Shown: positions 8,745 through 43,244, counted from the first letter of the stretch. The stretch is 52,333 nucleotides of DNA from a bacterium (GCA_021796415.1 JAJYJC010000004.1:1-52333), one strand, 5' to 3'. Translations and numbers: made by a program. The notes: generated from the sequence alone by a model not told the origin.

Positions 8745-8863
8745 CGTTTCACTTTCTAACGAATTAAGAATCAAACGAATCTACAAATACCGCTAATTTT
8801 TACTAACCTATTTGTAACTGTTTGGAACATTTGTAGATTTGTTTAAAAATTTGTAATACGTTA
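8745..8863. repeat. family A hairpin element (diverged copy)
   Basis: Shares AAACGAATCTAC...TTGTAGATT..TTTGTAAT.CGTTA with copies at 30300, 32590, 34453 and 43117. Confidence 0.75.
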
Positions 8864-8871
8864 CTCACTAC

Positions 8872-9082
8872 TTTTCCATAAGTAGCCGGCAGCAACCAAA
8901 TGGGTAGAACTTTTTAGGTTCTCGTTTTTATTTTTGTTTTTTAGAACAAAAAGCAGGATTTTATTGGGCTTAAATTTTTGAGAACATCCGGCGAGATGCC
9001 GGATAAATTTAAGAGATGGATGTTGTTTAGATTGAGTTTTTCAACTCTAGGTTCGTGATTACTACCAGCTATTTACGGAAAA
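8872..9082 (-). ncRNA. candidate structured RNA (27-bp closing stem, four internal hairpins)
   Basis: 8872-8898 pairs with 9056-9082; five of six differences are G-U pairs on the minus strand; internal GAAA tetraloop hairpin. Confidence 0.65.
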
Positions 9083-9095
9083 ATTATCATATTTA

Positions 9096-9108
9096 GTTGT
9101 CAAGGTTC
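9096..9108 (-). promoter_or_regulatory. boxA-like element GAACCTTGACAAC
   Basis: Resembles rRNA-leader boxA (GxxCyTTGAmAAC); no -10 at 17-bp spacing from its TTGACA. Confidence 0.4.
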
Positions 9109-9149
9109 AGCTCAATCTTCTTTGAATTCTCGTAACTCTTGCGGTTCTG

Positions 9150-9240
9150 AATTTTCAACGACCAATTTTCAATTTCCAATCAATTTCTAATTCTCAAATT
9201 GGGATTTTATTGGATATTGGTAATTGGAAATTAGTCATTC
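9150..9240. repeat. family D 7-nt-periodic AT-rich hairpin element
   Basis: (TTTCAAT)n arm followed by (ATTGG.A)n arm, downstream of mraZ. Confidence 0.65.
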
Positions 9241-9254
9241 AATAAATCAATGTG

Positions 9255-9686
9255 CTACATTTCAAGCGATTCGAGCTGTTCTGCTATCTGTGTCGAATCC
9301 TTTTCAACCCTAGCCTTATACTCTTCCCATTCCTTGGTGTCCCAAACCTCAATTCTTGAATAAACGCCAACTATTACCGCATTTGTCTTTAACTTTGCAA
9401 ACTCCCGCAGGTTTTGTGGGATGTTTATTCTTCCCTGTTTATCAAGACTGCAATCGTTTGCGCCGGACAAAACCATTCTGGAAAATGCTCTGGCGTTTGC
9501 TTGGGTGTAGGGCATGCTTGAAAGCTTTGGTGCGATTTTCTCCCATTCTTCCTTCGTATAGACAACCAGAACGTTCTCGAGGCCTTTTGTGATGACTACG
9601 CCATCGCTCAACTTGCCCCGGAACTTTGCCGGTAGAGCTATTCTGCCCTTCTCGTCTATGGAATGTCTGTATTCGCCTATAAACAT
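9255..9686 (-). CDS. mraZ: dcw cluster transcriptional regulator MraZ
   Basis: MFIGEY, DEKGRI.LP, DKQGRI.IP and RIEVW motifs; start ATG 9686. Confidence 0.97.
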   Translation of the reverse strand: MFIGEYRHSIDEKGRIALPAKFRGKLSDGVVITKGLENVLVVYTKEEWEKIAPKLSSMPYTQANARAFSRMVLSGANDCSLDKQGRINIPQNLREFAKLKTNAVIVGVYSRIEVWDTKEWEEYKARVEKDSTQIAEQLESLEM

Positions 9687-9696
9687 TTCTTTAAAT

Positions 9697-9742
9697 CCCC
9701 ACTTTTCACCACTTTCAACCATTTTACCCCACCCATAACCAC
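9697..9742 (-). promoter_or_regulatory. MraZ-binding direct repeats (DCW box)
   Basis: Five (G/A)TGG units at exact 10-bp period (CCAC/CCAT at 9699, 9709, 9719, 9729, 9739) just upstream of mraZ. Confidence 0.85.
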
Positions 9743-9856
9743 GTTGTAAAGACTTTTTTACCTATAGCCCCACTTGATGGATGAAGTGCATTTTTGAGCA
9801 CAAAAACCGGTTATTTTGGTACGATTTTGTGCTCAAGCGTGTCTTTGTCCACAAAA

Positions 9857-9892
9857 ACAAAAAAGAGCCTTTCAAAAATTGCTCTTTTTTGT
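9857..9892. terminator. intrinsic terminator downstream of csaA
   Basis: ACAAAAAAGAGC...GCTCTTTTTTGT inverted repeat with T-tracts on both strands. Confidence 0.55.
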
Positions 9893-9923
9893 ATACTAGT
9901 TTTCCACAGGTTTTTGTGGCGTA

Positions 9924-10256
9924 TTAATAAAGTTTGCCTCCGATTTCCGTGTCTTTATCCGGCACCGCTAAAACACAATTTCCTTTGTCGTCAGGAACGC
10001 CCAATGTCAGCACTTCTGACACGGCCGGGCCTATCTGTCTTGGAGGGAAATTTACTATGCCAAGAACCAACTTGCCCATCAAATCTTCCTTAGAATAGTT
10101 TTGAGTCAGTTGAGCACAGGATTTCTTTACGCCGATCTCACCACCGAAATCAATTCTAAGTTTATAAGAAGGATTTCTGGCTTCGGGAAAATCCTTCACT
10201 TCAACTATTTTCCCAACACGGATATCTAGTTTTTGAAAGTCTTCATATGTAGCCAT
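9924..10256 (-). CDS. csaA: CsaA/Trbp111-like tRNA-binding OB-fold protein
   Basis: DF.KLDIRVGKI, VNFPPRQIG and SEVLTLG motifs; start ATG 10256. Confidence 0.88.
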   Translation of the reverse strand: MATYEDFQKLDIRVGKIVEVKDFPEARNPSYKLRIDFGGEIGVKKSCAQLTQNYSKEDLMGKLVLGIVNFPPRQIGPAVSEVLTLGVPDDKGNCVLAVPDKDTEIGGKLY

Positions 10257-10257
10257 T

Positions 10258-11984: not shown

Positions 11985-12405
11985 TCTCGACTTCTACTCC
12001 CATGCTCCTTGCTGTGCCCGCGATAATGTTCATGGCGTGCTCTACGTCGTTTGCGTTTAGGTCTTCCATTTTTGCCTCGGCGACACGCCTAAGCTGATCC
12101 TTTGTCATCTTCCCCACTTTTTCCTTTTTACTGGAACCAGAACCTTTTTTCAGGCTAATTTCTTTTTTTATAAGCTCTGCTGCCGGCGGCTGCTTGGTAA
12201 TGAAATCAAATGTTCGATCTTCATAAACGGTTATGACAACCGGAAGCTTTGTGCCCATCTGCTCCTTGGTTTTTTCATTGAAAGCATTGCAAAAATCCAT
12301 GATGTTTAGACCATGTTGGCCGAGCGCAGGACCTACCGGTGGCGCAGGATTTGCCTGCCCCGCTATTACCTGCAATTTAATTTTGGTTTTAATTTTCTTT
12401 GCCAT
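11980..12405 (-). CDS. rplK: 50S ribosomal protein L11
   Basis: [15 protein letters not shown] and GTARSMG motifs. Confidence 0.98.
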
Positions 12406-12539
12406 TACTAATTTTCTCCTACCAACTACTAATCATACTTATTTACTAATTCTCCTTAAAGTTTATATCCTTTTATTATGCTCACTAATCTAGAATGTGT
12501 ATATTAGTATTATTCGTAATTGGTTACACTTAATTGGTA
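12406..12539. repeat. family B hairpin element (nusG-rplK junction)
   Basis: Arms near-identical to 13083-13208 and 16872-16996; unique core. Confidence 0.85.
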
Positions 12540-13082
12540 CTAAATTTTCTTTACCTGCAGTGAATCAAGCTCTACTGGCGTCTCTCTGCCAAACATGCTC
12601 ACTAGCACTTTGATTTTTCCTTTCTCTTCATCTACAACATCAACAGTGGCATCAGAACCTTTGAAGGGCCCGTCATTTATACTTACCAAATCACCTTTTC
12701 GAAGGTCAATTTTGTATTTTGGTTCCTCAACCCCCATTCGCTTCTGAATATTCTTAATCTCTGTTTCCGCCAATGGGACAGGAATGGTTCCTGAGCCGAT
12801 AAAACCGGTTACCTGGGGGGTGTTTCGAACTACATACCATGAATGTTCCGTAACGATCATATTTACCAGGACGTATCCTTGGAAAATTTTCTTTTCGACC
12901 ACTCGCCTTTTGCCGTTTCTGATCTCGATCGTCTTTTCTTTCGGTACGATAACGTCAAAGATAAGATCGGAAAGGCCGAGAGAATCTATTCTCTGGCGCA
13001 GATTTTCCGCCACCCTCTCCTCATATCCTGAGTACGTGTGGATGGCGTACCAGTTTCTTTCTTGTGATTCTTGTTTTGTCAT
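12540..13082 (-). CDS. nusG: transcription termination/antitermination factor NusG
   Basis: WYAIHTYSGYE, GYVLV, VRNTP.VTGF and FGRETPVEL motifs. Confidence 0.98.
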   Translation of the reverse strand: MTKQESQERNWYAIHTYSGYEERVAENLRQRIDSLGLSDLIFDVIVPKEKTIEIRNGKRRVVEKKIFQGYVLVNMIVTEHSWYVVRNTPQVTGFIGSGTIPVPLAETEIKNIQKRMGVEEPKYKIDLRKGDLVSINDGPFKGSDATVDVVDEEKGKIKVLVSMFGRETPVELDSLQVKKI

Positions 13083-13208
13083 TACTAATTTTCTCCTACC
13101 AACTACTTATCATACTAATTTACTAATTCTATTTAAGGTTATTTATTTTTCCTCATGATTGCTATCCAAGAATATGCACATTTGTATTATTCGTAATTGG
13201 TTACACTA
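13083..13208. repeat. family B hairpin element (secE-nusG junction)
   Basis: TACTAATTTTCTCCTACCAACTAC...GTATTATTCGTAATTGGTTACACT shared with the other copies. Confidence 0.85.
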
Positions 13209-16871: not shown

Positions 16872-16996
16872 TTGCTAATTCTCTCCTACCAACTACCAAT
16901 CATACTTATTTACTAATTCTTGCTTAGTTTGCCCGGCTGAATATTTGACCATTTTAGAACCTGTACATTGGTATTATTGGTAATTGGTTACACTTA
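16872..16996. repeat. family B hairpin element (holB-ricT junction)
   Basis: Third copy; overlaps the last codons and stop of holB. Confidence 0.8.
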
Positions 16997-23081: not shown

Positions 23082-23476
23082 TATACTCTCCTCGGTTTCT
23101 TTGCTCTGCATCCGTTATGGGGAAGCGGCGTTACATCTTTTATTGACTTTACATATATACCAAGAGATTGAAGCGCTCTGACAGCTGTTTCTCTGCCGGA
23201 ACCGATACCTTTTACATATACGTCTACTTCGCTTAAACCATAGGGTTTCGCCTTTTCGACTGCTGCTTCCATTGCTATCTGTGCCGCGTATGGGGTAGAC
23301 TTTCTCGACCCTTTAAATCCGGATGATCCGCTTGAACCCCAAGCGATAACATTTCCGGCTTCATCAGCAATAGAAATAATAGTGTTATTAAAAGTTGCCT
23401 TTATGTGAACTGTTCCTTTGTTTACAACTTTTTTAACTTTTTTTCTTTTTTTAACTGTTGCTTTTGGTTTTGCCAT
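23081..23476 (-). CDS. rpsK: 30S ribosomal protein S11
   Basis: [14 protein letters not shown] and [11 protein letters not shown] motifs. Confidence 0.98.
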
Positions 23477-23482
23477 GATATT

Positions 23483-23565
23483 TTGGTTAATTGGTTAATC
23501 GGTGTATGGGTTCATGGAGATTTTTCCTACTAACCTACCTACCCATTCACCCAACAACCCATCTA
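23483..23565. repeat. family C hairpin element (rpsM-rpsK)
   Basis: 8-nt periodic complementary arms. Confidence 0.8.
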
Positions 23566-23949: not shown

Positions 23950-23950
23950 A

Positions 23951-24021
23951 TATTGGTTCCTTGGTTTATGGATTTATGGGTTTTCCTAATTACCTACTAA
24001 CCTATTTACCCATTGACCTAT
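23951..24021. repeat. family C hairpin element (rpmJ-rpsM)
   Basis: 8-nt periodic complementary arms. Confidence 0.8.
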
Positions 24022-24022
24022 A

Positions 24023-24136
24023 TTATCCTTGCCTCTGCTTGTGCTTAGGATTCTCACAAATAACCCTAACCACGCCCTTTCGCCTGATTACTTTGCACTT
24101 TGAACAAATTTTCTTGACTCCTGCTCTAACCTTCAT
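24023..24136 (-). CDS. rpmJ: 50S ribosomal protein L36 (below the ORF-track cutoff)
   Basis: Hand translation [37 protein letters not shown]. Confidence 0.97.
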
Positions 24137-25830: not shown

Positions 25831-25933
25831 GTTGGTTAATTGGTTCGTTGGTTAATTGGTTCGTTGACAAGTGGATTCAGGAGAAACATTCCTCCGATAA
25901 ACCCATGCACCTATTTACTCATTAACCTATTTA
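25831..25933. repeat. family C hairpin element (rplO-secY)
   Basis: Includes an exact 16-nt tandem TTGGTTAATTGGTTCG x2; overlaps the rplO 3' end. Confidence 0.8.
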
Positions 25934-26345
25934 CTTTGCCGCCTTTTGCCACGATGGCCTTTTCAGCTGATTTTGAAACAAAGTCTACATTCACGTCAAC
26001 TGCCTTTTCGATCTTTCCATTCCCGAGAACCTTAACGGGCATTTTATCATCCTGTATTAGTCCTTTTTGCAAAAGTTTTTCTTTTGTGATTTTCCCCGTA
26101 AATCCGTTTAAGTCGCTAAGATTTACAACTTGATTCTTCGGATGTATGGATTTGAAACCTTTCAGCTGCGGCAATCTCTTTGCCAGGGGCGTCTGTCCGC
26201 CTTCAAAGCCAATGCGAATCTTGCCGCCGGACCTTGACTTCTGACCCTTTGTGCCTCGTCCTGCAGTCTTTCCTGTCCCGCTACCGATGCCTCGGCCAAC
26301 CCTTTTCTTATTTTTTGTTGTTGGAATTAAATTATTTAGTTCCAT
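25911..26345 (-). CDS. rplO: 50S ribosomal protein L15
   Basis: RVGRGIGSG.GKT and FEGGQTPL motifs. Confidence 0.98.
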   Translation of the reverse strand: MELNNLIPTTKNKKRVGRGIGSGTGKTAGRGTKGQKSRSGGKIRIGFEGGQTPLAKRLPQLKGFKSIHPKNQVVNLSDLNGFTGKITKEKLLQKGLIQDDKMPVKVLGNGKIEKAVDVNVDFVSKSAEKAIVAKGGKVNRLMSK

Positions 26346-28427: not shown

Positions 28428-28494
28428 TTGGTTATTGGGTCAGTGGGTTGATAGATTATTAGGTAATTCTTTCCTATAAACCCATAAACCTATT
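28428..28494. repeat. family C hairpin element (rpsN-rpsH)
   Basis: 8-nt periodic arms. Confidence 0.7.
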
Positions 28495-28680
28495 CTACCA
28501 ACTTGACTTTGTTACACCGGGTATTTCACCCTTGTTTGCCATTTCCCTAAAACATATTCGGCAAAGCTCAAACTGTCTGATATACCCCCTGGGTCTTCCG
28601 CATTTTTTGCACCTTGAAACCTTGCGCGTAGAATACTTCGGTTTTTTTTCTGCTTTTACTATCATTGATTTTCTTGCCAT
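28495..28680 (-). CDS. rpsN: 30S ribosomal protein S14 type Z
   Basis: C..CGR, CRICFR and PGVTKSSW motifs. Confidence 0.97.
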
Positions 28681-29240: not shown

Positions 29241-29327
29241 TATTGGTTAATTGGCATTCGGTTCGTGGGTTTGTGGAGCTTTGAATATTAGAATTTTACC
29301 CAACAACCTACTAACCCATTCACCCAT
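29241..29327. repeat. family C hairpin element (rplX-rplE)
   Basis: 8-nt periodic arms; contains the rplX stop. Confidence 0.8.
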
Positions 29328-29640
29328 TCGCCAACTCCTTTTTGCATCTTCTGCAAATTCTCTCTTTCTTGCCGTTTTTTAAAACCTTAAAGCCGACTCT
29401 TGATCCCTTATTACACTTTGGGCAAACCAGCTGGACATTTGAAATATCCATAGGCGCGGACTTCTCGACTATTCCACCGCGCGGGTTTTTTTCACTGCCT
29501 TTGACGGTCTTTTTCACAATATTTAAACCGTCTACGATAACCTTATTTGCTTTTGGCAGCACAGCTGAAACTGTTCCGGTTTTTCCATTATCTTTGCCGG
29601 TTAGGATAGTTACTTGATCTCCTTTTTTTATCTTTGCCAT
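29320..29640 (-). CDS. rplX: 50S ribosomal protein L24
   Basis: KKGDQV...GKD.GK KOW motif, SNV. Confidence 0.97.
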   Translation of the reverse strand: MAKIKKGDQVTILTGKDNGKTGTVSAVLPKANKVIVDGLNIVKKTVKGSEKNPRGGIVEKSAPMDISNVQLVCPKCNKGSRVGFKVLKNGKKERICRRCKKELANG

Positions 29641-29688: not shown

Positions 29689-30057
29689 CTACAGTACCTC
29701 CGGTGCTAGTGAAACGATTTTCATATAACCTCTTTCCCGAAGCTCTCTGGCGACTGGCCCAAAAATACGGGTACCTCTAGGCTGTCCTGACTTATCTATA
29801 ATAACTGCTGCATTGTCATCAAACTTAATAGTTGAACCGTCTTTCCTTCTGTTTTGATTTACAGTTCGAACAACAACCGCCTTCACTACTTCCTTTTTCT
29901 TGACTGTTCCGCTTGGAATAGCAGTTTTGACACTGGCAGTAATGACATCGCCTACACGGGCATACCGTCTTCTTGTGCCACCCAAAACCTTGATGCACAT
30001 AATTTCTTTTGCACCTGTGTTGTCTGCTATCTTTAATCTTGTCTGCTGTTGTACCAT
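29689..30057 (-). CDS. rplN: 50S ribosomal protein L14
   Basis: [14 protein letters not shown] and [12 protein letters not shown] motifs. Confidence 0.98.
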
Positions 30058-30299
30058 TACTTTGCTTCCTTATTATTTTCGACCACTTGCCATCTTTTAT
30101 TTTTTGAAAGCGGCCTTATTTCTTCGATTTCTACCACATCACCTATTTTGCATTTGTTTTCATTGTCATGCGCCATAAACTTGGTTGTGGTTTTATATTT
30201 CTTGCGGTAAATCGGATGGCTTTTCAAAGCTTCGACTTTGACTACCACAGATTTATCCATTTTGTCAGAAACAACCGTTCCCTTTAGCCTTCTTTTCAT
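30057..30299 (-). CDS. rpsQ: 30S ribosomal protein S17
   Basis: [13 protein letters not shown] and RPLSK.KRW motifs. Confidence 0.98.
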
Positions 30300-30430
30300 T
30301 GTCGCTCATGCTCCTTTTTGTAACTAATTACTTTATCTTAAACGAATCTACGAATATTACTTATTTCTCACGAATCTATTTGTACTAATTTGTAACACTT
30401 GTAGATTCGTCTAGGATTTGCAATTCGTTA
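30300..30430. repeat. family A hairpin element (rpmC-rpsQ)
   Basis: ~130 bp; highly similar to the 32590, 34453 and 43117 copies. Confidence 0.92.
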
Positions 30431-30634
30431 CACATTATCTTCCTTTACCAGCTCTCTTTCTCTCTTAACCGTCAAGGCTCTTGCCAGATCCTTCTTTAAC
30501 TTTCTGATATCTCTCACCTTATTTGATTCTTTCGTGGCTACATCAAAATGAAGTTTGAGCAGCTTTTCCTTGCTATCTTTGATGAACTTATCAAGTTCTT
30601 TGTCTTTTTTCTGCGCTATTTCCTTAATCTTCAT
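30428..30634 (-). CDS. rpmC: 50S ribosomal protein L29
   Basis: Position and [14 protein letters not shown] motif. Confidence 0.92.
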
Positions 30635-31069: not shown

Positions 31070-31155
31070 ATTGGTTATTGGGTTAATGGGTGTGTAGGTT
31101 TATGGGATCTTCCCCTAACCTACCCGCCAACTAACCGACTAACCTATTTACCTAT
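31070..31155. repeat. family C hairpin element (rpsC-rplP)
   Basis: 8-nt periodic arms; contains the rpsC stop. Confidence 0.8.
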
Positions 31156-32310: not shown

Positions 32311-32589
32311 TTAACCTTTTCGCTGTTCCTTTGCCATCTTACCGCCGTGCCCTCTAAACTTGCGGGTTATTGAAAATTCACCTAACTTATGCCCGACCAT
32401 ATCCTCTGTTACAAAAACCGGGATGTGATCTTTGCCGTTATGGACGCCGAATGTGTGGCCCACCATTTCCGGAGAAATAGTTGAGGCGCGAGCCCAAGTC
32501 TTTATAACTTTCTTATCATTGCCAAGAGACGTGACTTTCTTGAGCAACTTTTCATCTACATATGGTCCTTTTTTCAGTGATCTAGACAT
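32311..32589 (-). CDS. rpsS: 30S ribosomal protein S19
   Basis: RSLKKGP, VHNGK and MVGHKLGEF motifs. Confidence 0.98.
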
Positions 32590-32720
32590 CGTCGCTTACG
32601 CTCCTTTCTGGTAACTAATTACTTATCTTAAACAAATCTACGAATATTACTTATTCCTTACGAATCAATTTGTACTAATTTGTAACATTTGTAGATTCGT
32701 CTAGGATTTGTAATTCGTTA
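32590..32720. repeat. family A hairpin element (rplB-rpsS)
   Basis: Near-identical to the other family A copies. Confidence 0.92.
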
Positions 32721-32723
32721 CCA

Positions 32724-33551
32724 TTATCTTTTTCTTCCTCTTACAATCATCTTATTTGATTTGGCTTTTCTGTTTCTGGTTTTAAATCCAAGCGCCGGCA
32801 TACCCCAAGGTGTTTTCGGATGAACCAGGCCGATATCTGTTCCGCCTTCACCACCGCCATGCGGATGATCAACCGGGTTCATGGCCTTACCTCTTACGGT
32901 CGGACGAATACCCATATGTCTTTTTCGACCAGCCTTGCCAACTTTAATATTTTTGTGCTCGGCATTTGAAACTTCACCTATAGACGCTAAGCATCTCTCG
33001 TCAACTAATCTTTGCTCTCCTGAAGGGAGCTTTATCTGAACATACTTGCCTTCTTTTGCCATTAACTGAATCTTTGTACCGGCGCTCCTGGCAAGCTGTC
33101 CGCCTCTCCCGGGAGTCAGCTCCACATTGTAAATAGTGGTTCCGACGGGAATGTCTTTTAGCACCAGCCTGTTTCCAGATCTCACTTCCGCTCCCTCACC
33201 AGCGACAACTTTCTTGCCAACTTTGGAACCTTTGGGGGCTATCATATAAAACTTTGAATTATCTTCCCTCTCCACCAAAGCTATACGAGCGTTTCGATTG
33301 GGATCGTATTCAATCGCTGTAATCTTGCCTTCCAGATTTCCTGACATCTTAAAGTCAATCAATCTATACTTTCTCTTGGCGCCGCCGCCTTGGTGCCTGA
33401 CGGTAATTTTCCCTTGCCCGTTTCGGCCTGAATTCTTCTTTAGAGGTACCACTAAAGATCTCTCCGGACTCTTTTTTGTAATGTCCGCAAAGTCATCCAT
33501 GCTCATTCGGCGTCTTGCGTTTGATGTCGGTTTGACCTTTTTTACTGCCAT
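32724..33551 (-). CDS. rplB: 50S ribosomal protein L2
   Basis: EYDPNR, ARSAG and MNPVDHPHGGGEG motifs. Confidence 0.98.
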   Translation of the reverse strand: MAVKKVKPTSNARRRMSMDDFADITKKSPERSLVVPLKKNSGRNGQGKITVRHQGGGAKRKYRLIDFKMSGNLEGKITAIEYDPNRNARIALVEREDNSKFYMIAPKGSKVGKKVVAGEGAEVRSGNRLVLKDIPVGTTIYNVELTPGRGGQLARSAGTKIQLMAKEGKYVQIKLPSGEQRLVDERCLASIGEVSNAEHKNIKVGKAGRKRHMGIRPTVRGKAMNPVDHPHGGGEGGTDIGLVHPKTPWGMPALGFKTRNRKAKSNKMIVRGRKR

Positions 33552-33835
33552 TATATTCCTTTAAATTCCTCTATTTTATCGCCGGCTTTCAGTGTGACAT
33601 ACGCCTTTTTGAAATCCGATCTTTTGCCATACTTTCTGCCGACTCTTTTGACTTTTCCTTTTACGACAACTGTTCTAACGTTTACAACCGTTACCTTAAA
33701 AAGTTTTTCTATTGTCCCCGCTATTTCAATCTTGTTTGCATCCATGTCAACAACAAATACATACTTTCCTTCTTCTGCCTTAGCGAAGCTTTTCTCGCTG
33801 ATAACCGGTTTCTTTAAAATGCCTAGCATTTCCAT
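33551..33835 (-). CDS. rplW: 50S ribosomal protein L23
   Basis: P.ISEK, ANK.EI and KKAYVTL motifs. Confidence 0.97.
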   Translation of the reverse strand: MEMLGILKKPVISEKSFAKAEEGKYVFVVDMDANKIEIAGTIEKLFKVTVVNVRTVVVKGKVKRVGRKYGKRSDFKKAYVTLKAGDKIEEFKGI

Positions 33836-34452
33836 TATTTTGCCTCCTCACTAAGCATCTTTAAACTCTCGCCGATAAAAACCACTTTTCTTGCCCACGT
33901 AATATCATATGCGTTTAGGTTTTTGTAATTTACCATTTTGACACCCGGCAAGTTTCGAACGCTCTTTTCTGCGTTTTCATCATTTTTCTCAACAACTATC
34001 AGTGTGTTTCTGTTTAAGTCCAGTTTCTTTAGCAAATTTGCAAACACCTTGGTGCTTGGCTTCTCCATCTTTATCTCGCTGATGGCCAAAATGTCTGCAT
34101 CTTTTTTTGTCCTAAGCGCGGACATGAGAGCTGCATTTCTTTTTTTCTTTGGCATATTTAGCTTATAGTTTTGCGCGCCGGTCGGGCCAAATGTTACCCC
34201 GCCGCCTCTCCATATAGGCGACCTTGAGGAGCCTGCTCTGGCGCGGCCTGTTCCTTTTTGTCTCCACGGCTTCTTGCCGCCACCGGAAACTTCAGATCTG
34301 TCAAGCGTCTTTGCGCCTGCCTGCCTCTTATTTGACTGTATGATGTGCAAAGCCTCAGCAAGCAAAGATTCATTTACTCTTCCATCAAAAACCTTGGTAC
34401 TTATCGTACTTTCTGTTTTTTTGCCTGTTTTGTCATAAACTGCTACTTTCAT
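33835..34452 (-). CDS. rplD: 50S ribosomal protein L4
   Basis: GGGKKPWRQKGTGRAR and GGGVTFGP motifs. Confidence 0.98.
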   Translation of the reverse strand: MKVAVYDKTGKKTESTISTKVFDGRVNESLLAEALHIIQSNKRQAGAKTLDRSEVSGGGKKPWRQKGTGRARAGSSRSPIWRGGGVTFGPTGAQNYKLNMPKKKRNAALMSALRTKKDADILAISEIKMEKPSTKVFANLLKKLDLNRNTLIVVEKNDENAEKSVRNLPGVKMVNYKNLNAYDITWARKVVFIGESLKMLSEEAK

Positions 34453-34582
34453 GCGTCTCTCACGCTCCTTTTGTAACTAATTACTTATCTTAAACGAATC
34501 TATGAATATTACTTATTATCACGAATCTATTTGTACTCATTTGTTACCATTTGTAGATTCGTCTAGGATTTGTAATTCGTTA
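34453..34582. repeat. family A hairpin element (rplC-rplD)
   Basis: Near-identical to the other family A copies; contains the rplC stop. Confidence 0.92.
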
Positions 34583-35188
34583 CACATTAACACTCTTTAT
34601 TAACACAACTGACTTTCTTGGTCCCGGTACTGCTCCTTTAATTGCCAAAACGTTCTTCTCCGCATCTACCTTTTCGATTGTTAAATTTTTAACCGTTGTC
34701 TTAGCATGGCCCATCTGACCGGGCAGCTTTCTCCCTTTGAAAACATGCTGCGGAAACATAGCCCCGATAGAACCGGGCCTTCGCTGATTTCTTGAACCGT
34801 GAGTCATGGGACCGCGATGGAAGTTGTGCCTTTTGATCGTTCCGGCAAATCCTTTTCCTTTGCTTACGCCTGTAACGTGGATTTTTTCTCCTTCTTTGAA
34901 AACATCGCACATTATAGCGTCACCAACCTTCATGTCCTCGCCTACGATTTTCACCTCTTTCAGAAATCTCGGCTTTGATCCTGATTTTTTTAAATGGCCG
35001 AGAATCGGCTTTGAAAGTTTCTTGGTTTCGCCAAATCCAATCTGCATGGCCTCGTAACCGTCTTTCTCGGTGTTTCTGATTTGCGTAACCACGCACGGAC
35101 CCGCCTCTACCAATGTAACAGGAACCATCTCGCCGTTTTTGCCGAAATAGTTTGTCATTCCAATTTTTTTGCCTAGAATTGCTTTCAT
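34580..35188 (-). CDS. rplC: 50S ribosomal protein L3
   Basis: GKKIGMT, SKGKGFAG and KGAVPGP motifs; start ATG 35188. Confidence 0.97.
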   Translation of the reverse strand: MKAILGKKIGMTNYFGKNGEMVPVTLVEAGPCVVTQIRNTEKDGYEAMQIGFGETKKLSKPILGHLKKSGSKPRFLKEVKIVGEDMKVGDAIMCDVFKEGEKIHVTGVSKGKGFAGTIKRHNFHRGPMTHGSRNQRRPGSIGAMFPQHVFKGRKLPGQMGHAKTTVKNLTIEKVDAEKNVLAIKGAVPGPRKSVVLIKSVNV

Positions 35189-35429: not shown

Positions 35430-35966
35430 TTATTTTCGTCCTTTCTTTCCTTTGACGATTATGGGCTTGCCCAGGATCTTTCTCGCCTCTTCCTTCAATG
35501 GTATTTTCCAACCCAAGTTTTCCTTCTCTTTAATAAGTTTTAGCAAATAAAAGGGGTGGACATGAATATAGTTTCCTTTAAAGAAATATCTGACTTGTTT
35601 TTTGTCCTTTTTGGGTAATAGTTTCAGAAGTTCGCTTGTGACAAAGTCAGGCGCAAAGAGATATACATCTGTTACTTCCTTTCGAATAATAGTGTCGTCT
35701 ATCAAAAGATCTAACTCTTTCAAAAATCTATGTCTGAACTTTGCCTTATTTGTCTCAAGCACCGAACCGGACTCAAAAACATGCCCATGGCCGGCGCTCT
35801 CGAAAAAACCCTCTTTGTCCGAATAATGCGGGTAGAGCATCTTGAACTCACCTGTCATTTCTATCTCTCCGTTGCTTGCGACGTAGAAGTCAGCTGTATG
35901 CAATCCGGCAGTGACAATCAAGGCGTTTTTGCTCCTAAATTGCGGCAAATCCCTGGTGATCTTCAT
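35430..35966 (-). CDS. hypothetical protein, host-attachment/baeRF (eRF1 domain-like) family candidate
   Basis: N-terminal beta strand LIVTA, SD.EG loop, helix F.KEL, YLFAP and C-terminal GNY...P..L pattern. Confidence 0.55.
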   Translation of the reverse strand: MKITRDLPQFRSKNALIVTAGLHTADFYVASNGEIEMTGEFKMLYPHYSDKEGFFESAGHGHVFESGSVLETNKAKFRHRFLKELDLLIDDTIIRKEVTDVYLFAPDFVTSELLKLLPKKDKKQVRYFFKGNYIHVHPFYLLKLIKEKENLGWKIPLKEEARKILGKPIIVKGKKGRK

Positions 35967-36047
35967 GCCGCTAAACTAACATGGGAAATAAATAATTTAA
36001 CTGTTTAAAGTTATAAATCCAATAACCCAGAGCACTTATACACGTCA

Positions 36048-36131
36048 CACGACTTACGCATTCCGCACACACCCGGTGAGCAAATACCACCCACACCCGG
36101 TGTGTAAAATCAGCGAAATGCGTAAATCATG
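36048..36131 (-). repeat. hairpin enclosing two CACACCCGGTG palindromes
   Basis: 36048-36066 pairs with 36113-36131 (G-U compatible on the minus strand). Confidence 0.6.
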
Positions 36132-36175
36132 GTCATTCTGGCCTGTCTTGCCGGCAGGCAGGCCTGTCCAGAATC
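36132..36175. repeat. GTCATTCTGGCCTGTCCAGAATC palindrome with nested insertion
   Basis: 8-bp GGCCTGTC duplication around TTGCCGGCAGGCA. Confidence 0.8.
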
Positions 36176-36177
36176 TT

Positions 36178-37119
36178 TTATTTCTGAAGAGTTTTCTCGG
36201 TAACCATACTTAGCCACTTGCCATATGTTTTGACTTTGCCATGAACAATATCGAGGTAGAGCTCACGGATTTTTTTCGTTACCTCCCCCTCTTTTTCTCC
36301 TGTTAGCTTAAGGTCGTTTATCTGTCCGATGGCATTGACTTCCACGGCCGTCCCGACAAAGAAAGCCTCATCAAAGCCCTTGATTGCATCCGGTTTGATG
36401 TCTTTTTCCTTGACTCGCATACCCAATTCTCTCTGGGCAATTTCAATTATTGAAGCCCTTGTTATCCCTGGCAAAATAGAGCCTTTGTTTGGCGTGAATA
36501 ATTGTTTGTCTTTGACGAAAAATACATTCTCTCCCGGACCTTCGGCAATATTTCCCTTGTAATCTAGAAGTAACGCTTCATCAAAGCCGTGATTTTTGGC
36601 ATCTGTTGAAGCCAGTATCGAGTTGGCGTAATGTCCGGAGATTTTGGCTGTCATAACGCTGGATTTGGGATGAATCCGTGTGAAATCAGATATCTTGACC
36701 TTTACCGCTTCCTTGGAAAGATATTTACCCCAAGGCCAGGCCGCAATCATGACATTAATTTCTGAACCCGCCGGATCTAATCCCATCTTCTCACCGTAAA
36801 ATACCAGCGGCCTTATGTAACACTCGGTTAAATTATTTTTTCGGATAATTTCAAGTGTCGCTTCAATAATTTCAGCCTCACTCCACCCGTCATTCCCGCG
36901 CAGGCGGGAATCCATCTGCATTGCCTCTGCTGACTTATACAACCTTTTTATATGATCTTCCAATCTAAAGACTGCTGGACCGCGTGAAGTCTCGTAACAA
37001 CGAATTCCTTCAAACACTCCTGAGCCATAGTGAAGAGAATGATTCAAGATATGAACCCGCGACTCTTCAAATGGAATAACTTCCCCGTTAAGCCATATAA
37101 AATCAGCCAGCTTCTGCAT
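36178..37119 (-). CDS. ilvE: branched-chain amino acid aminotransferase
   Basis: LHYGSGVFEGIR, YIRP, AK..G.Y.NS, EG.GEN.F, ILPGITR and GTA.E motifs. Confidence 0.93.
   Translation of the reverse strand: MQKLADFIWLNGEVIPFEESRVHILNHSLHYGSGVFEGIRCYETSRGPAVFRLEDHIKRLYKSAEAMQMDSRLRGNDGWSEAEIIEATLEIIRKNNLTECYIRPLVFYGEKMGLDPAGSEINVMIAAWPWGKYLSKEAVKVKISDFTRIHPKSSVMTAKISGHYANSILASTDAKNHGFDEALLLDYKGNIAEGPGENVFFVKDKQLFTPNKGSILPGITRASIIEIAQRELGMRVKEKDIKPDAIKGFDEAFFVGTAVEVNAIGQINDLKLTGEKEGEVTKKIRELYLDIVHGKVKTYGKWLSMVTEKTLQK
36888..36914. repeat. dRS3-like palindrome inserted in-frame in ilvE
   Basis: CGTCATTCCCGCGCAGGCGGGAATCCA, read as DSRLRGND. Confidence 0.85.
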
Positions 37120-37572
37120 TTATTTAATCTCCTTAAAAAATGGCTTTTCGGATTCAACCCAGTCAGCAATTTCTTCTTGGATTCCTTCCGGCAGGATTAT
37201 TTGTTTTTTCAAATCTTTCTCTTTCGTTGCAATAAATTCTATATGATCTTCCTTACTTTTAATATCATCCGTTGGAAGATTGACTTCAAATATAATATTT
37301 ACCTCATGTTGTAATTTATCTTTATGATGAACAAATAAATTTTCGCAAATTCCAACAAATGACGAAATATCGATATTTTTTATCCCTAGCTCTTCTCTCA
37401 ACTCTCTTTTTAGGGCTTCTTTGGCGCTCTCACCATTTTCAACATGGCCTCCCGGTAAAAAATGCCAGCTTTTATCTTTTAACTTGCATAAAATCACATT
37501 ACCGGAAGGGCTCCGCAAAAAGCCCCTGGCTATAAAATGAATATTAGAATCAGGAGAAAAGTATTGCCGCAT
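37120..37572 (-). CDS. NUDIX hydrolase
   Basis: Nudix box GGHVENGESAKEALKRELREELG. Confidence 0.93.
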   Translation of the reverse strand: MRQYFSPDSNIHFIARGFLRSPSGNVILCKLKDKSWHFLPGGHVENGESAKEALKRELREELGIKNIDISSFVGICENLFVHHKDKLQHEVNIIFEVNLPTDDIKSKEDHIEFIATKEKDLKKQIILPEGIQEEIADWVESEKPFFKEIK

Positions 37573-37608
37573 ACTTTCATTATAGCCGAGTTGAAGCTCG
37601 AAGGAAAA

Positions 37609-38088
37609 TTATTGTAGCCAAGAATTTTTCTTCACAAACCCCAGCTTTTTCCAGCGCTTTCCAAGTCCCAGATAATCACCGGCGCCAACTGATGCAAGGG
37701 TCAAGAGAACCAAAATATAGACAATGTGTTCGTCAATTAGCGGATTCATTTTGATAGGCAGTGATGCCAGCCATATGAGAAACATCATTATAGATCCCAC
37801 ATATGCAGAGAGCTTTACTCTGAAGCCGAGTATTAAACCGACTCCCACGAAAAGCATTCCCAGCATAAAGAGCCAATCCACAACCACATTACCCGCCAGA
37901 CTGTGAAATGTACCGGCAAAAGGACCTTGCACAGATTTTAGAAACCCTGCCGTTGGCGATACGCCGTTAAGCCAAGCTTTCCCTGACTTAGTCGCATAGC
38001 CCAAGCCAAAAAGCTTATCCAGAAAAGTCCACAGAAATATCCAGCCCATCACGATTCTCGTGAGTCCAAATAAATATTCTTTTTTCAT
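37609..38088 (-). CDS. DoxX/DoxD-family membrane protein
   Basis: R..MGWIFLW.FLDK.FGLG, SPT.GFL and NP..DEH..Y motifs; 4 TM. Confidence 0.85.
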   Translation of the reverse strand: MKKEYLFGLTRIVMGWIFLWTFLDKLFGLGYATKSGKAWLNGVSPTAGFLKSVQGPFAGTFHSLAGNVVVDWLFMLGMLFVGVGLILGFRVKLSAYVGSIMMFLIWLASLPIKMNPLIDEHIVYILVLLTLASVGAGDYLGLGKRWKKLGFVKKNSWLQ

Positions 38089-38101
38089 TTTTTGCCTTCC
38101 T

Positions 38102-38147
38102 GCCCTCTCCGCCTATTGGCGGATAAACTCCGCTTAGCGAAGGTGGG
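38102..38147. repeat. REP-like element with CTCCGC duplication
   Basis: Shared with 26366-26408. Confidence 0.7.
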
Positions 38148-38207
38148 TCTTTATGATTTTTTTCCCCCTTCATAATACCATAATAATTTTTATTGGCAAA
38201 TCTTTTT

Positions 38208-38239
38208 ACCACTAGCCTAAACCGGTTTAGGCTAGTGGT
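38208..38239. promoter_or_regulatory. perfect 32-bp palindrome (operator or REP)
   Basis: ACCACTAGCCTAAACC|GGTTTAGGCTAGTGGT; lies just upstream of a TTGCCA-16-TATTAT promoter (38172-38199) for doxX. Confidence 0.6.
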
Positions 38240-38246
38240 TCACCCG

Positions 38247-38591
38247 TTAATTAATTCTTACTCCTTTGTATCTTATGGTTCTTGTTCTTTTTCGATACGT
38301 CGTTATTTTCTTCTTAGTTAATTTTGCGCTTTTTTCAAAGCCAAAACCACATTTCAAGCTAAGCCTGCTGATTGCAGTTGCGCTCATACCTGTTGCGATC
38401 TTTATATCAGCATATGTTGACCCTTCGCTGATCATTTTCAAAACCTTGTATCGTCTGGCAATATCGTTAATTTCTCTCGTAGTCAAAACATTGTCAAAAA
38501 TACTTCCAACTTCATCCCTATTTCTGCATTCCACTAATAAATCCATTACATCGGCAATTTCTTTATCATGCCAAATCAATCTTTTATTCAT
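38247..38591 (-). CDS. TrpR/YerC-YecD-like helix-turn-helix protein
   Basis: F...LT..E...IA.R..V..M..EG.TY.DI...TG.S.TAISR pattern; start ATG 38591 after AAGGAGG. Confidence 0.85.
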   Translation of the reverse strand: MNKRLIWHDKEIADVMDLLVECRNRDEVGSIFDNVLTTREINDIARRYKVLKMISEGSTYADIKIATGMSATAISRLSLKCGFGFEKSAKLTKKKITTYRKRTRTIRYKGVRIN

Positions 38592-38634
38592 AACACCCTC
38601 CTTCATTATTAGATATTAAATTAAATCAACCAAT

Positions 38635-40285: not shown

Positions 40286-40375
40286 AACTTTCTCCTTGTA
40301 AATCCTTCGAGGTTTTATACGAAGAAGGACCTTTAGATTTAATTAGTTTATTATTTTTAGTCAAGTTACCGGTTT

Positions 40376-40404
40376 ATTTTACCTTAAATTTGTTTTATTT
40401 GCAA
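40376..40404 (-). promoter_or_regulatory. internal tuf promoter
   Basis: TTGCAA-17bp-TAAAAT. Confidence 0.65.
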
Positions 40405-40416
40405 CATCTTTTGAAT

Positions 40417-40470
40417 TTGGTTATTGGGAATTAAGCAGCCTATTTGCCTAATTACCCACTCGCCTATTCC
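40417..40470. repeat. family C element (fusA-tuf)
   Basis: 8-nt periodic GCCTATTT/GCCTAATT/ACCCACTC/GCCTATTC; contains the fusA stop. Confidence 0.65.
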
Positions 40471-42545
40471 CCTGACTTTCCTCGCTTTGACTTGATTTCT
40501 TCGGCCACATTGCCGGGAACTTCTTCGTAGTGGTCAAACTCCATGGAATATGCTGCTCTGCCTTGAGACATTGAGCGAAGCGTTGTGGCATAACCAAACA
40601 TTTCGGCAAGCGGCACATGGGAATCAATAATTTTGGATCCGAACTTATCCTCCATCTTCTGGATTCTTCCGCGTTTTGAGTTGATATCACCCATGACATC
40701 CCCCATGAACTCTTCCGGAGTCGTGACTTCAACGCGCATAATCGGCTCAAGGATGATCGGATTGCCTTTTTTGACACCGTCCTGAAGCGCCATAGAACCG
40801 GCGATTTTAAATGCCATTTCAGACGAATCAACCTCATGGAATGACCCGTCATAAAGAGTTGCCCGGATGTCCACCACGGGGTAACCTGCGACAACGCCAT
40901 TTGCCATTGCTTCCTTGATGCCGTTCTCGACCGGATTGATATATTCCTTCGGGATAGCGCCGCCAACGATTTTGTTTACAAATTCAAAACCTGCGCCTGA
41001 TTCAAGCGGCTCTAGCTCAAGCAAAGCGTGGCCATATTGGCCGCGGCCGCCGGATTGGCGAATGAATTTTCCTTCCGCTTTTGAAGGCGACTTAATAGTT
41101 TCGCGATAAGCCACCTGCGGTCGGCCGACATTTGCCTCAACCTTAAACTCTCTTTTCATTCTGTCTACAATAATTTCAAGGTGAAGCTCTCCCATACCTT
41201 CGATAAGGGTCTGGCCGGTTTCTTCATTTGTTTTAACCCTGAAAGTTGGGTCCTCTTCGGCAAGCCTTTGTATAGCCATGGCCATTTTTTCCTGGTCTGC
41301 TTTCGTTTTTGGTTCGATAGCAACCTGGATGACCGGCTCCGGGAAAGTAATTTTTTCGAGCACTACCGGTTTTGCCACGTCGCAAATAGTATCTCCCGTG
41401 GTTGTGCCTTTTAAACCAACTGCTGCCGCAATTTCACCGGCATAGACTTCCTTCACTTCTTCCCGGGAATTTGCGTGCATTTTCAAGATTCTGCCGATTC
41501 TTTCCTTTGAGTTTGTTGTGGCATTTAGAACATAACTTCCACTGGAAAGCTTGCCTCTGTAGACTCTAAAGAACGCCAGCTTTCCGACGAAAGGATCTGT
41601 TGCAATTTTAAATACCAGCCCCGCTAACGGCCCGTCGTCAGTTGATTTCACCTCTACCTCTTCACCAGTCTTTGGGTCTTCGCCTTTTGCCTGAGGCACT
41701 TCCATGGGATTTGGCAGATAATCGACAACTGCGTCCATGATGGTTTCGACCACCACGCCTCGGCCGTCGCCGCCAAGCACGGGATAGAAGTTTGCGCCAA
41801 GTACGCTTTTTCGGATTGCCGACTTAAACTCTGCTTCTGTAATCTCCTCGCCGCCAAGGTATTTCTCCATCAAAGCATCATCTATCTCAACTACCTTTTC
41901 CAGCAGTTTCTCTCTGTATTCTTCGGCCTTGGCTTTCATATCTTCCGGGACTTCGCCCTCTTTCAAGGTTTTGTCTGTGTAATCTTCATAGGTGTAGGCT
42001 TTCATGGAAACCAAGTCCACCGCTCCTTTTATGCCTTGCTCAAATCCAATCGGAAGTTGAAGCGCGTAAGCGTTTTTGTTAAGCCTCTGGTGAATTGATT
42101 CTAAACTCTTATAAAAATCGCCGCCTGTTTGATTGATCTTGTTTATAAAGCAAATTCTTGGGACATTATATTTATCTGCTTGCCTCCAAACTGTTTCTGA
42201 CTGAGGCTCAACGCCCATTTTCCCGTCAAATACAACAACCGCGCCGTCTAGAACGCGAAGGGATCTCTCCACTTCAACCGTAAAGTCAACATGGCCCGGA
42301 GTGTCGATAATGTTTATGTTGTGATCTTTCCAAAAGCATGTGGTAGCGGCAGAAGTGATGGTGATGCCTCGCTCTTTCTCCTGCTCCATCCAGTCCATAG
42401 TCGCTTCACCTTCGTGAACTTCGCCAATTTTGTGTGTTCTGCCGGTAATATACAAAATACCCTCGGTGACGGTTGTTTTGCCGGCATCAATGTGGGCAAT
42501 AATTCCAATATTTCTCATCTTTTCCAAACTGTATTTTCTGGGCAT
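40464..42545 (-). CDS. fusA: elongation factor G with altered G4/G5 motifs
   Basis: [26 protein letters not shown] and HEVDSS motifs; str-operon position. Confidence 0.98.
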
Positions 42546-42553
42546 TTTTCTCC

Positions 42554-42640
42554 TTGGTTAATAGGTTGATGGGTTGATGGGTGAGTCGGCAAGTGAGATT
42601 TTTTTATCAACCCAATCACCTACTGACCCATTGACCCATT
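42554..42640. repeat. family C hairpin element (rpsG-fusA)
   Basis: (TGGGTTGA)n arm and (ACCCATTG)n arm. Confidence 0.8.
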
Positions 42641-43116
42641 TAGTATCTTGCAAAGTGCGCAAAAGCTTTGTTTGCTTCTGCCATTTTGTGAGTGTCTTCT
42701 TTCTTTTTAATTGCCGTCCCGGTATTGTTATACGCATCCATTATTTCTTCTGCCAAACAAATGTCAAACGGCTTGCCCTTTCTGTTTCTCGCGGCATCTC
42801 GAATCCATGTAAATGCATAATGAACTTTTCGACCTGCCTTAACTTCAATAGGCACTTGGTAAGTGGCGCCGCCGATCCTTCTGGATTTGATCTGAACTTG
42901 CGGAGAAACATTTTTTACCGCCGTTTCGAAAACTTCCAAAGGGTCGGTTTTCATCTGCTCCTGGATTTTATCCATTGCACCATAAACAAGCTTTCTGGCA
43001 ACAGACTTCTTGCCATGAAGCATGATTTTGTTCATAAATTGGGCTAGCAAAACACTGTTGTATCTTGAATCTGGCTCAATAACTTTTCTCTCGACTTTTC
43101 TGGGATCTCTTGGCAT
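42640..43116 (-). CDS. rpsG: 30S ribosomal protein S7
   Basis: GKKSVA, RRIGGATYQVP and HKMAEANKAFAH motifs. Confidence 0.98.
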   Translation of the reverse strand: MPRDPRKVERKVIEPDSRYNSVLLAQFMNKIMLHGKKSVARKLVYGAMDKIQEQMKTDPLEVFETAVKNVSPQVQIKSRRIGGATYQVPIEVKAGRKVHYAFTWIRDAARNRKGKPFDICLAEEIMDAYNNTGTAIKKKEDTHKMAEANKAFAHFARY

Positions 43117-43244
43117 GCGTCGCTATGCTCCTTTCCTACTAATTACTAATCTTAAACGAATCTACAAATATTACTTATTTCTCACGAATCTATTTGTGCT
43201 AATTTGTAACATATGTAGATTCGTCTAGGATTTGTAATCCGTTA
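43117..43244. repeat. family A hairpin element (rpsL-rpsG)
   Basis: Near-identical to the other family A copies. Confidence 0.92.

Follow-up and report, generated by a model that had tools for sequence, protein, structure and literature searches.

Hairpin cassettes at stop-to-start junctions of ribosomal-protein operons and their probable kinship with a longer element carrying a GxxExxY gene

Results

Family A cassettes fill gene junctions of the window

The subject of this study is a family of ~130-nucleotide (nt) palindromic repeats, here called family A, in a 52,333-nt stretch of bacterial DNA (GCA_021796415.1 JAJYJC010000004.1:1-52333; hereafter, the window) whose genes lie nearly all on the minus strand. 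The genome containing the window, G000, is a 903-kb assembly of 49 contigs and 43% G+C; coordinates are those of the window unless a contig (C-number) is given. A first-pass annotation made from the sequence alone had listed five copies, all sense to transcription, four of them filling the rpmC-rpsQ, rplB-rpsS, rplC-rplD and rpsL-rpsG spacers. Alignment with MAFFT (mean column identity 85%) and inspection of the sequence place the five copies where that annotation had put them and in the same orientation [Table 1, c1 to c5], and Pfam names the genes flanking the four filled spacers as those of the ribosomal proteins (RPs) L29|S17, L2|S19, L3|L4 and S12|S7, and those around c1 as MraZ and RsmH.

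Table 1 Coordinates of the cassettes, adjoining genes and related features
Feature	Position	Strand	Remark
Cassette c1	8745..8865	minus	diverged family A; 3' end abuts rsmH ATG (8744)
Cassette c2	30300..30437	minus	fills L29|S17; S17 ATG at 30299
Cassette c3	32590..32726	minus	fills L2|S19; S19 ATG at 32589
Cassette c4	34453..34589	minus	fills L3|L4; L4 ATG at 34452
Cassette c5	43117..43247	minus	fills S12|S7; S7 ATG at 43116
rpsQ (S17)	30057..30299	minus	Pfam PF00366; downstream of c2
rpsS (S19)	32311..32589	minus	Pfam PF00203; downstream of c3
rplD (L4)	33835..34452	minus	Pfam PF00573; downstream of c4
rpsG (S7)	42640..43116	minus	Pfam PF00177; downstream of c5
Family A long form	G000:C21:53673-53159		two half-copy matches are the arms of one element upstream of recA
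RAYT-like Y1_Tnp genes	G000:C32:7144-7764; L038:1276-1986 (G000:C7); G000:C2:2387-2647
Family B	7742-7832, 23475-23553, 23953-24025, 25832-25934, 28428-28500, 29293-29331, 31071-31151, 42546-42643
Family C	12398-12530, 13075-13207, 16872-16996		TACTAAT/ATTAGTA units; copies 80-96% identical

Pairwise identity among the four RP copies is 85.7-90.3%, and that between c1 and those copies is 69.6-71.4%. These values bear on the idea that a hairpin arose independently at each junction by slippage or inverted duplication of short units, the copies being alike by convergence. All hairpin families encountered here are indeed built from 7-11-nt repeated units; yet the identity among the RP copies extends over ~130 nt between non-homologous junctions, loop and tail included, and homologous copies stand at other junctions in other genera. 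Judged by the identity between copies, convergence is effectively refuted.

On the mRNA strand, each copy carries 4-6 ACRAAT units in its 5' arm and 3-5 ATTNGT units in its 3' arm, the background for the genome being 0.08 per 130 nt and strand; the first-pass annotation had given about six of each. Stop and Shine-Dalgarno (SD) positions were read directly from the sequence. The RP cassettes open with TAATG(T)GTAACG, or at S12 with TGATAACG instead, and close with the tail AAAGGAGC(A/G)T(A/G)AG(C/A)GAC plus 1-2 nt, which in all four RP copies is flush with the ATG of the downstream gene. In c2, TAATGTGTAA at the 5' end provides the L29 stop codon (30430-30428), the hairpin spans ~30432-30320, and the SD AAAGGAG with its spacer GCATGAGCGACA runs flush to the S17 ATG. 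The stops of L29 and L3 are the TAA of TAACG (..AAT GTG TAA; 34582-34580 for L3), that of L2 is the TAA of TAATG (32726-32724), and that of S12 is a TGA at 43247-43245 overlapping TGATAACG. The tails of c3, c4 and c5 read GGAGCGTAAGCGACG, GGAGCGTGAGAGACGC and GGAGCATAGCGACGC and are flush with the ATG of S19, L4 and S7, respectively. The 5' stop, the SD-bearing tail flush with the ATG and, in three copies, a TAATG at the 5' end are thus as originally reported. In one family A subfamily, the 5' end holds a pair of TAA stops that lie in different frames, and the 3' end a strong SD whose spacer has a fixed length of 10-12 nt. Cassette c1 is devoid of the canonical tail and lies ~390 nt downstream of the mraZ stop, in an mraZ-rsmH spacer of 510 nt whose remaining part (8866-9254) holds a second long predicted hairpin at ~9148-9249.

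The ATG of the three TAATG motifs (30433-30437, 32722-32726 and 34585-34589) opens a frame of 7-16 codons through the 5' arm. A conserved peptide is unlikely since the frame differs between copies, the L2|S19 copy having a 1-nt indel; going by its sequence, translation into the 5' arm could matter for unfolding. A consensus scan of the coding strand of the four RP cassettes found neither a promoter-like (-35/-10) nor a terminator-like (GC stem plus T-run) site, and totals for the region were near shuffle expectation.

The cassettes fold into long A-U-rich hairpins

The sense RNAs of the four RP copies fold with predicted energies of -38.3, -41.2, -34.0 and -37.1 kcal/mol, corresponding to z-scores of -6.9, -7.5, -5.7 and -7.4 relative to dinucleotide shuffles; the fold of c1 is weaker (-21.0 kcal/mol, z -2.0). 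The stem comprises ~40 pairs and is A-U-rich, with the SD outside it and the upstream stop in, or just before, its base. The long hairpin of the first-pass annotation is therefore borne out (z down to -7.5), and its supposed richness in G-U pairs is not: the six G000 copies have 2-5 G-U pairs among 35-47 (3-5 in the five window copies), at a G+C content of 27-32%. The outer arms, GTAACGAATTAC...GTAATTAGTTAC, pair with one another, and the whole element is an imperfect palindrome with terminal inverted repeats. Analysis of 23 sense copies with RNAalifold retained 22 pairs, of which four showed compensatory changes, and the ACGAATCTAC/GTAGATTCGT core is nearly invariant between genera. Rfam covariance models at gathering score returned four tRNAs only in the window, with no match to a cassette and no rRNA. 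The largest hairpin per intergenic region failed to separate real from shuffled sequences (27 vs 21 with at least 30 pairs, 344 spacers), so that no genome-wide excess of hairpins is claimed; a k-mer palindrome finder did not pick up even the known family A copies.

Family A copies precede start codons in sense orientation

A profile of the five copies identified six full copies in G000, the sixth (C31:12635-12750) being upstream of MreC, plus partial ones. In a comparison set of 41 relatives, G000 included (G001 is of the same genus; G002 and G004 serve as outgroups), BLAST with one copy gave matches in 8 genomes, among them G000. Of the 28 genomes of the order, a covariance model detected family A in 6, five of which belong to the family-level clade of the window.

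To assess placement, flanks were fetched for the stronger matches only (26 regions). Together with G000, these loci yielded 33 non-overlapping profile matches, of which 24, from six genomes, were near full length, and a match was scored when a co-oriented open reading frame (ORF) of at least 50 codons started -25 to +40 nt from the 3' end of the element. Such a start was present at 23/24 full-length copies, compared with 3/24 when the same places were read antisense. On the 5' side, where the test is looser, a co-oriented open frame ended within 30 nt of 22/24 copies (antisense control, 11/24). The orientation result is not a product of the tail being part of the profile, since placement also holds for 11 of the 12 matches whose profile alignment stops before the tail. 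Thus, the random orientation and placement that the first-pass annotation had set against its own reading is not what the copies display.

All copies examined sit at mRNA junctions. The downstream genes, as named by Pfam, encode S17, S19 (three genomes), L4, S7, L22, S4, L10, L31, RRF (two genomes) and EF-G, as well as GroEL, NusG, SecA, SecE, YidC, RecA, GAPDH, TIM, MreC and a few others. The GGAGC..AGCGAC tail is flush with the ATG of at least 11 different genes in four genomes; in G000, the tail motif occurs only at the family A cassettes, at one cassette of another type (family B, S3|L16) and at one partial A copy before L31. A pattern scan of ~600 Gb of contigs returned at least 124 loci where ~500 chance matches are expected by arithmetic; among the loci listed, the family profile scored 6 strongly and 17 weakly. 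The scan thus says little on distribution, and ACGAAT-unit hairpins do occur in other metagenome-assembled genomes (MAGs) labelled Patescibacteria.

Junctions are filled, empty or replaced in close relatives

RP operons from five relatives were mapped by tblastn and their junctions read. At L29|S17, G001, G002 and G004 have an ATGA overlap and are empty. Because G001 is 99.0% identical to the window across the 834 nt adjoining this junction, and G002 and G004 are empty as well, the L29|S17 cassette is a recent gain in the lineage of the window. Contigs from two metagenome runs of one study (X3 and X4) also join position 30300 to 30449 through 31 letters of the empty form; they probably stem from a G001-like lineage, and are therefore not independent of G001.

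The L2|S19 junction is filled in G000, holds diverged A copies in G001 and G005, and is empty in G002 and G004, where the two genes overlap by 8 nt; the overlap in the outgroups, shared by G004, reads ATGTCTAG. At L3|L4, the near-abutting outgroup junction is TAAAAGATG; G004 and G005 are empty (TAA, 3-4 nt, ATG; TAA-AAG-ATG in G004), and G001 harbors a hairpin of a different family (TAGG/CCTA). S12|S7 is a 13-nt spacer in G004 and is occupied by other hairpin families in G002 and G005. Family A is found elsewhere in these relatives, at S19|L22 in G002 and at S7|EF-G in G005. As judged from the unfilled junctions, those taken over were ancestrally overlapping or near-abutting. Of the 23 junctions between S12 and SecY, 19 measure -15 to +16 nt in the compact operons of G004 (the exceptions being 62-107 nt at S7|EF-G, EF-G|EF-Tu and L15|SecY, and 26 nt at EF-Tu|S10). 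G000 has 11 of the 23 widened to 77-178 nt, and the widened junctions of G002 form a different set.

At L29|S17, L2|S19, L3|L4 and S12|S7, the gained cassette stands in place of 7-14 nt of the former junction, among them the former SD. The gain shortens L29 by 5 residues and gives it a new -NV end; from L2, the last four residues are missing. An ATG or NTG stands 5' of the element at the five window copies of G000 and at one G002 copy, not in G001 or G005. On a larger scale, 137 kb of the 181 kb of G001 aligned to G000 at a mean identity of 89.7%, revealing 47 indels of at least 40 nt, of which 15 were cassette-sized; several other small palindromic repeat types are involved. An abundant small repeat with GTCATTCC...GGAATGAC ends makes up several of the cassette-sized indels, some in or beside coding sequence (e.g., G000:C32:10653-10756, C33:1617-1749 and C4:6734-6770).

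These comparisons establish family A as a multi-copy, clade-restricted palindromic element whose gain, loss and replacement at operon junctions set close relatives apart, that lies sense to the genes directly before a start codon and of which one subfamily brings its own stops and ribosome binding site (RBS). The first-pass proposal of a non-autonomous mobile element at translationally coupled junctions is supported by placement and by presence/absence polymorphism, the orthologous spacers being empty, filled or replaced rather than identical in all relatives; as far as sequence comparison can tell, mobility is supported.

A long form brackets a GxxExxY gene upstream of recA

Longer versions carrying a GxxExxY gene, which the first-pass annotation had suggested looking for, do exist. 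Two half-copy matches in G000 proved to be the arms of one element [Table 1, long form] in which the TAA of the upstream gene is followed by ATCTT, an A-type 5' arm, a 133-codon ORF, an A-type 3' arm, AAAAGGAGGAAGAA (containing the SD) and the recA ATG. The 133-amino acid product is a GxxExxY protein (TIGR04256, 117.6 bits for a cut-off of 35; PF13366 PDDEXK_3, 115.4 bits), and the ORF is the sole PF13366 gene of G000. On sequence, the arms of the ORF-less (solo) cassettes are homologous to those bracketing this gene. A-type arms also flank the GxxExxY gene of G001 and G002, and the arms joined without the ORF fold with z-scores of -5.9, -4.9 and -8.5 (G000, G001 and G002). G003, G004, G006 and G007 have no GxxExxY gene; there, a plain spacer of 25-50 nt separates recA from the end of that same upstream gene.

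Across the 41 genomes, 7 have both GxxExxY and family A, 1 has family A only (called from a weak 30-nt match, E 6.5e-4), 1 has GxxExxY only and 32 have neither; within the family-level clade, the split is 5/5 vs 0/4 and divides one genus. The overlap is not circular, since in G005, G008, G012 and G013 the solos are on other contigs than the GxxExxY genes.

PF13366 genes were present in 39 of 301 sampled genomes of the phylum, and the 100-nt flanks on the two sides of the ORF were compared for complementarity at 25 loci (27 were returned, two of them at contig edges). The median z was -2.15 for the 25 GxxExxY ORFs, 10 of which had z <= -3, compared with +0.2 for 54 neighbouring control ORFs, of which 2 reached this value. 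A co-oriented ORF started within 150 nt after the GxxExxY ORF in 20/25. Here too the arms are arrays of short periodic units, with units that vary between elements; in one distant genome (L219), ACGAAT-type arms ending in GTAG are followed by an SD and an ATG.

Nine GxxExxY proteins (36-73% identical) share five invariant residues, E37, Y40, D76, E86 and K88, which make up the GxxExxY motif and the PD-(D/E)xK triad. An AlphaFold (AF2) model built from that alignment (pLDDT 88.1, pTM 0.80) has as its closest solved folds the Cas4 protein SSO0001 (E 2e-5), lambda exonuclease and the Hjc Holliday-junction resolvases, at 2.8-4.6 Å over ~100 residues; a search of the PDB by sequence returned no solved structure matching the protein. 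From its conserved residues and predicted fold, the nuclease looks active.

The placement of family A could also reflect a host-selected RNA module (a processing site, a stabilizer of 5' or 3' ends, or a translational insulator with a strong RBS) spread by recombination or gene conversion and not selfish, with GxxExxY as a passenger. The strict sense orientation and position, the near-invariant core and the four compensatory stem pairs, and the mostly translational and housekeeping nature of the downstream genes are all compatible with this idea, as is the finding that G000 paralogues (87-90% identical) are more alike than the L2|S19 orthologues of G000 and G001 (~74%), which fits concerted evolution. 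Close relatives, however, manage without the element at the same junctions, different hairpin families replace one another at one junction, no Rfam family and no promoter- or terminator-like site is found inside, the excess of G-U over A-C pairs is weak, and the phylum-wide bracketing of GxxExxY genes by such arms is hard to square with a chance passenger. We regard this explanation as unlikely.

Candidate mobilizing genes

As to what might move family A, the search for a parent element yielded the long form itself, which has the same arms and encodes not a recognised transposase but a PD-(D/E)xK protein of unassigned function. A different source of mobility would be Y1 (IS200-type) tyrosine transposases resembling those associated with repetitive extragenic palindromes (REPs), or RAYTs, family A then being a palindrome akin to the miniature transposable elements with inverted repeats known as MITEs or to REPINs, mobilized in trans, with purifying selection alone accounting for its placement at junctions. 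G000 does carry three Y1_Tnp genes over the Pfam cut-off [Table 1] with readable HUH and Y motifs, all 8 family A genomes also have Y1_Tnp, and hairpin ends in relatives read CTAC...GTAG, recalling the GTAG-tagged REPs described in PMC3733652. However, the Y1 genes of C32 and C7, the two whose flanks were read, have on either side GC-rich palindromes of their own that are unrelated to family A (GGTTCGACC.. or TGCAAGGGTCAGACCCTTGCA, the latter type also being seen as G000/G001 indels), and the Y1 genes score below the NCBIfam RAYT cut-off (48 vs 80 bits). In G002, no Y1 gene shares a contig with a family A copy, and Y1_Tnp is present in 22 of the 41 relatives, including 14 of the 33 genomes without family A. 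Moreover, REPINs are described in PMC3116915 as randomly distributed extragenically, unlike the 23/24 found here, and selection alone fails to explain ATG-flush insertions at 11 or more different genes. Mobilization by Y1 transposases is thus quite improbable in our view.

Profile searches of G000 gave no TnpB and no rve match. Two RVT_1 genes (C39:36307-37467 and C4:2573-3190) have nothing that ties them to the cassettes; one of them adjoins a weak PF05635 (Avd-like) match, suggestive of a diversity-generating retroelement (DGR). Integron attC sites (R''/R' consensus) were considered and dropped, as the CTACGG...CCGTAG ends in relatives do not fit and operon gene order is conserved.

Other repeat families and features of the window

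Two further hairpin families occupy junctions of the window. Family B, with GGGT/GGTT-type 8-nt units in the 5' arm, ACCC/AACC in the 3' arm and fold z-scores of -0.4 to -4.4, fills junctions including S7|EF-G, S3|L16, S14|S8, L24|L5 and L15|SecY; its S3|L16 copy ends in the A-like tail GGAGCAAAGCGAT. A B-type arm matching the B hairpins of the window precedes a four-helix-bundle (PF05635) gene at G000:C8:8305. Family C fills the NusG|L11, SecE|NusG and holB|RicT-like junctions, with z-scores of -0.2 to -2.5, so that its folds are only slightly better than those of shuffled sequence.

Between rpsJ (S10) and rplC (L3), positions 35430-38606 hold five genes, encoding an unknown 178-amino acid protein, an IlvE-like aminotransferase, a Nudix hydrolase, a DoxX-like and a YerC/TrpR-like protein. 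This insert varies in relatives (2.2-5.3 kb), and the Nudix gene region is missing from G001. The spacer between S5 and L15 (26346-26433) measures 88 nt and contains a GC-rich hairpin (z -4.4) and no L30 gene, the rest of the genome not having been searched for L30. The lack of L30 at this locus and the 903-kb size of the assembly would fit an organism of the Patescibacteria (Candidate Phyla Radiation) type.

Discussion

In our judgment, family A is probably the miniature version, devoid of an ORF, of a mobile cassette that is bracketed by hairpin arms and carries the gene of a GxxExxY nuclease of PD-(D/E)xK fold in its loop. The solos would be internal-deletion derivatives of the longer element that settle at transcribed stop-to-start junctions, where their own stops and SD would let them replace overlapping, translationally coupled junctions. 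The upstream protein would lose or change a few C-terminal residues, and the downstream gene would start from the RBS of the cassette, whose SD may maintain its expression. On the mRNA, the predicted ~40-bp stem would hold the upstream stop at its base, next to an unpaired SD and ATG. By analogy with the intervening sequences (IVSs) of 23S rRNA, the stem may be cut by RNase III, of which G000 has one gene; the operon transcript would then be split into translatable pieces and the insertion be phenotypically quiet. Mobility might be provided in trans by the GxxExxY nuclease, whose substrate could be the cruciform or hairpin into which the arms fold as DNA.

Several observations weigh against this account. 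Comparison of filled with empty forms at L29|S17, L2|S19, L3|L4 and S12|S7 revealed no target-site duplication, and an ATG-flush insertion with replacement of 7-14 nt fits no known transposition mechanism. The GxxExxY gene is single-copy and occupies the same site upstream of recA in five genomes of three genera, and so looks vertically inherited there rather than actively moving; the arms at this site differ between genera, G005 and G008 having other arm types, so that the two, arms and cargo, are not simply moved as one. The genomes compared are kin, such that the co-occurrence counts overstate the support that they lend. The GxxExxY ORF has no obvious SD, and the PDDEXK_3 (PF13366) entry in a 2012 survey of the superfamily reads 'Unknown' (PMC3424549). 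At the RNA level, the antisense strand folds about as stably as the sense strand, and the 26 sense copies contain 74 G-U vs 43 A-C pairs, or 55 vs 41 once the five copies used to train the model are set aside; given this weak strand asymmetry and the equally stable antisense folds, selection at the RNA level is at most a possibility, and the palindrome may be selected on either strand and as RNA or as DNA. Transcription through the cassette, its cleavage and the effects on translation are likewise all things that we infer from sequence.

A wider proposal may be entertained, albeit tentatively and with less confidence than the kinship of solos and long form. GxxExxY proteins (PF13366/TIGR04256) might be the nucleases of an undescribed class of mobile elements, each a palindrome of periodic units around a nuclease gene, homing to stop-to-start junctions before highly expressed genes and silenced at the RNA level by excision of the stem. 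The periodic units would be a recognition array for the nuclease, differing between elements, and miniatures with portable stops and RBS would become irremovable because the native junction signals are gone, a state that might be termed 'junction addiction'. In a literature search outside of which lay subscription journals and supplements, no prior description of junction hairpins in Candidate Phyla Radiation genomes was found, and GxxExxY proteins appeared only in passing mentions.

RP operons are among the most conserved and tightly coupled gene arrays of bacteria, and their junctions are here overwritten on a strain-to-strain time scale by a repeat equipped with translation signals of its own; at least in reduced genomes such as these, coupling of this kind can thus be replaced more readily than is commonly supposed. 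The long form offers a first concrete genomic context for GxxExxY, a widespread family of unknown function, and suggests one continuum of RNA-silent selfish elements that runs from rRNA IVSs through hairpin-bracketed small ORFs to solo junction hairpins. In practical terms, the cassettes enlarge intergenic regions, cause assemblies to break at repeats and can lead the annotation of start codons and operons astray in small-genome metagenome bins, and the hairpin-plus-RBS unit represents a natural portable intercistronic part.

Among known systems, the IVSs of 23S rRNA offer a first parallel. That of Coxiella burnetii is described as a selfish insert whose stem is removed by RNase III (PMC4990558). 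Family A resembles IVSs with an S23p ORF in being a putatively selfish insert in very highly transcribed RNA with inverted arms, a long stem and, in the long form, a small ORF in the loop, and would likewise be tolerated since its stem can be taken out of the RNA; several of the eight PF05635 matches of G000 are similarly bracketed by arms of periodic units followed by an SD and ATG. Since PF05635 also covers the Avd proteins of DGRs, as noted in PMC10053308, not all eight need be IVS-like. Unlike IVSs, family A lies at mRNA junctions rather than in helix 25 or 45 of 23S rRNA, and its loop ORF encodes a TIGR04256/PF13366 GxxExxY protein rather than an S23p four-helix bundle. Most of its copies have no ORF, one subfamily brings stops and an RBS, and cutting by RNase III is in this case a matter of analogy.

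The Correia elements of Neisseria and the enterobacterial repetitive intergenic consensus (ERIC) or intergenic repeat unit (IRU) sequences of enterobacteria, Yersinia included, are likewise imperfect palindromes of ~100-150 bp that are non-coding, multi-copy, co-transcribed and strain-polymorphic. Correia RNA hairpins are reported to be cut by RNase III, and ERIC to affect decay by RNase E (PMC10969869, PMC2649163). Unlike them, family A has no TA or other target duplication, is flush with start codons, carries its own stops and SD, and replaces overlapping junctions in the S10, spc and str operons; in the text of a review on prokaryotic MITEs from 2024, none of the terms Shine-Dalgarno, ribosome binding and start codon occurs (PMC10969869). 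With REPs, REPINs and RAYTs, family A has in common that it is a hairpin-forming, non-autonomous extragenic repeat, in genomes with RAYT-like genes and, in relatives, with GTAG/CTAC hairpin ends. REPs, however, are units of 20-40 bp with an unpaired GTAG/CGTC tag, their doublets being scattered at random over extragenic space, whereas family A measures 100-130 nt and has its GTAG in paired form, three of the window copies lacking it altogether; nor does family A lie beside the RAYT-like genes, and it is strictly positioned and oriented. Lastly, the intergenic TAACTGA direct-repeat arrays of Beggiatoaceae are described as lying in the leaders of many genes, with a proposed post-transcriptional role (PMC4679880). 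Family A shares with these arrays the short periodic units in intergenic regions; unlike the direct TAACTGA repeats, which form no hairpin, its ACRAAT/ATTYGT units are inverted.

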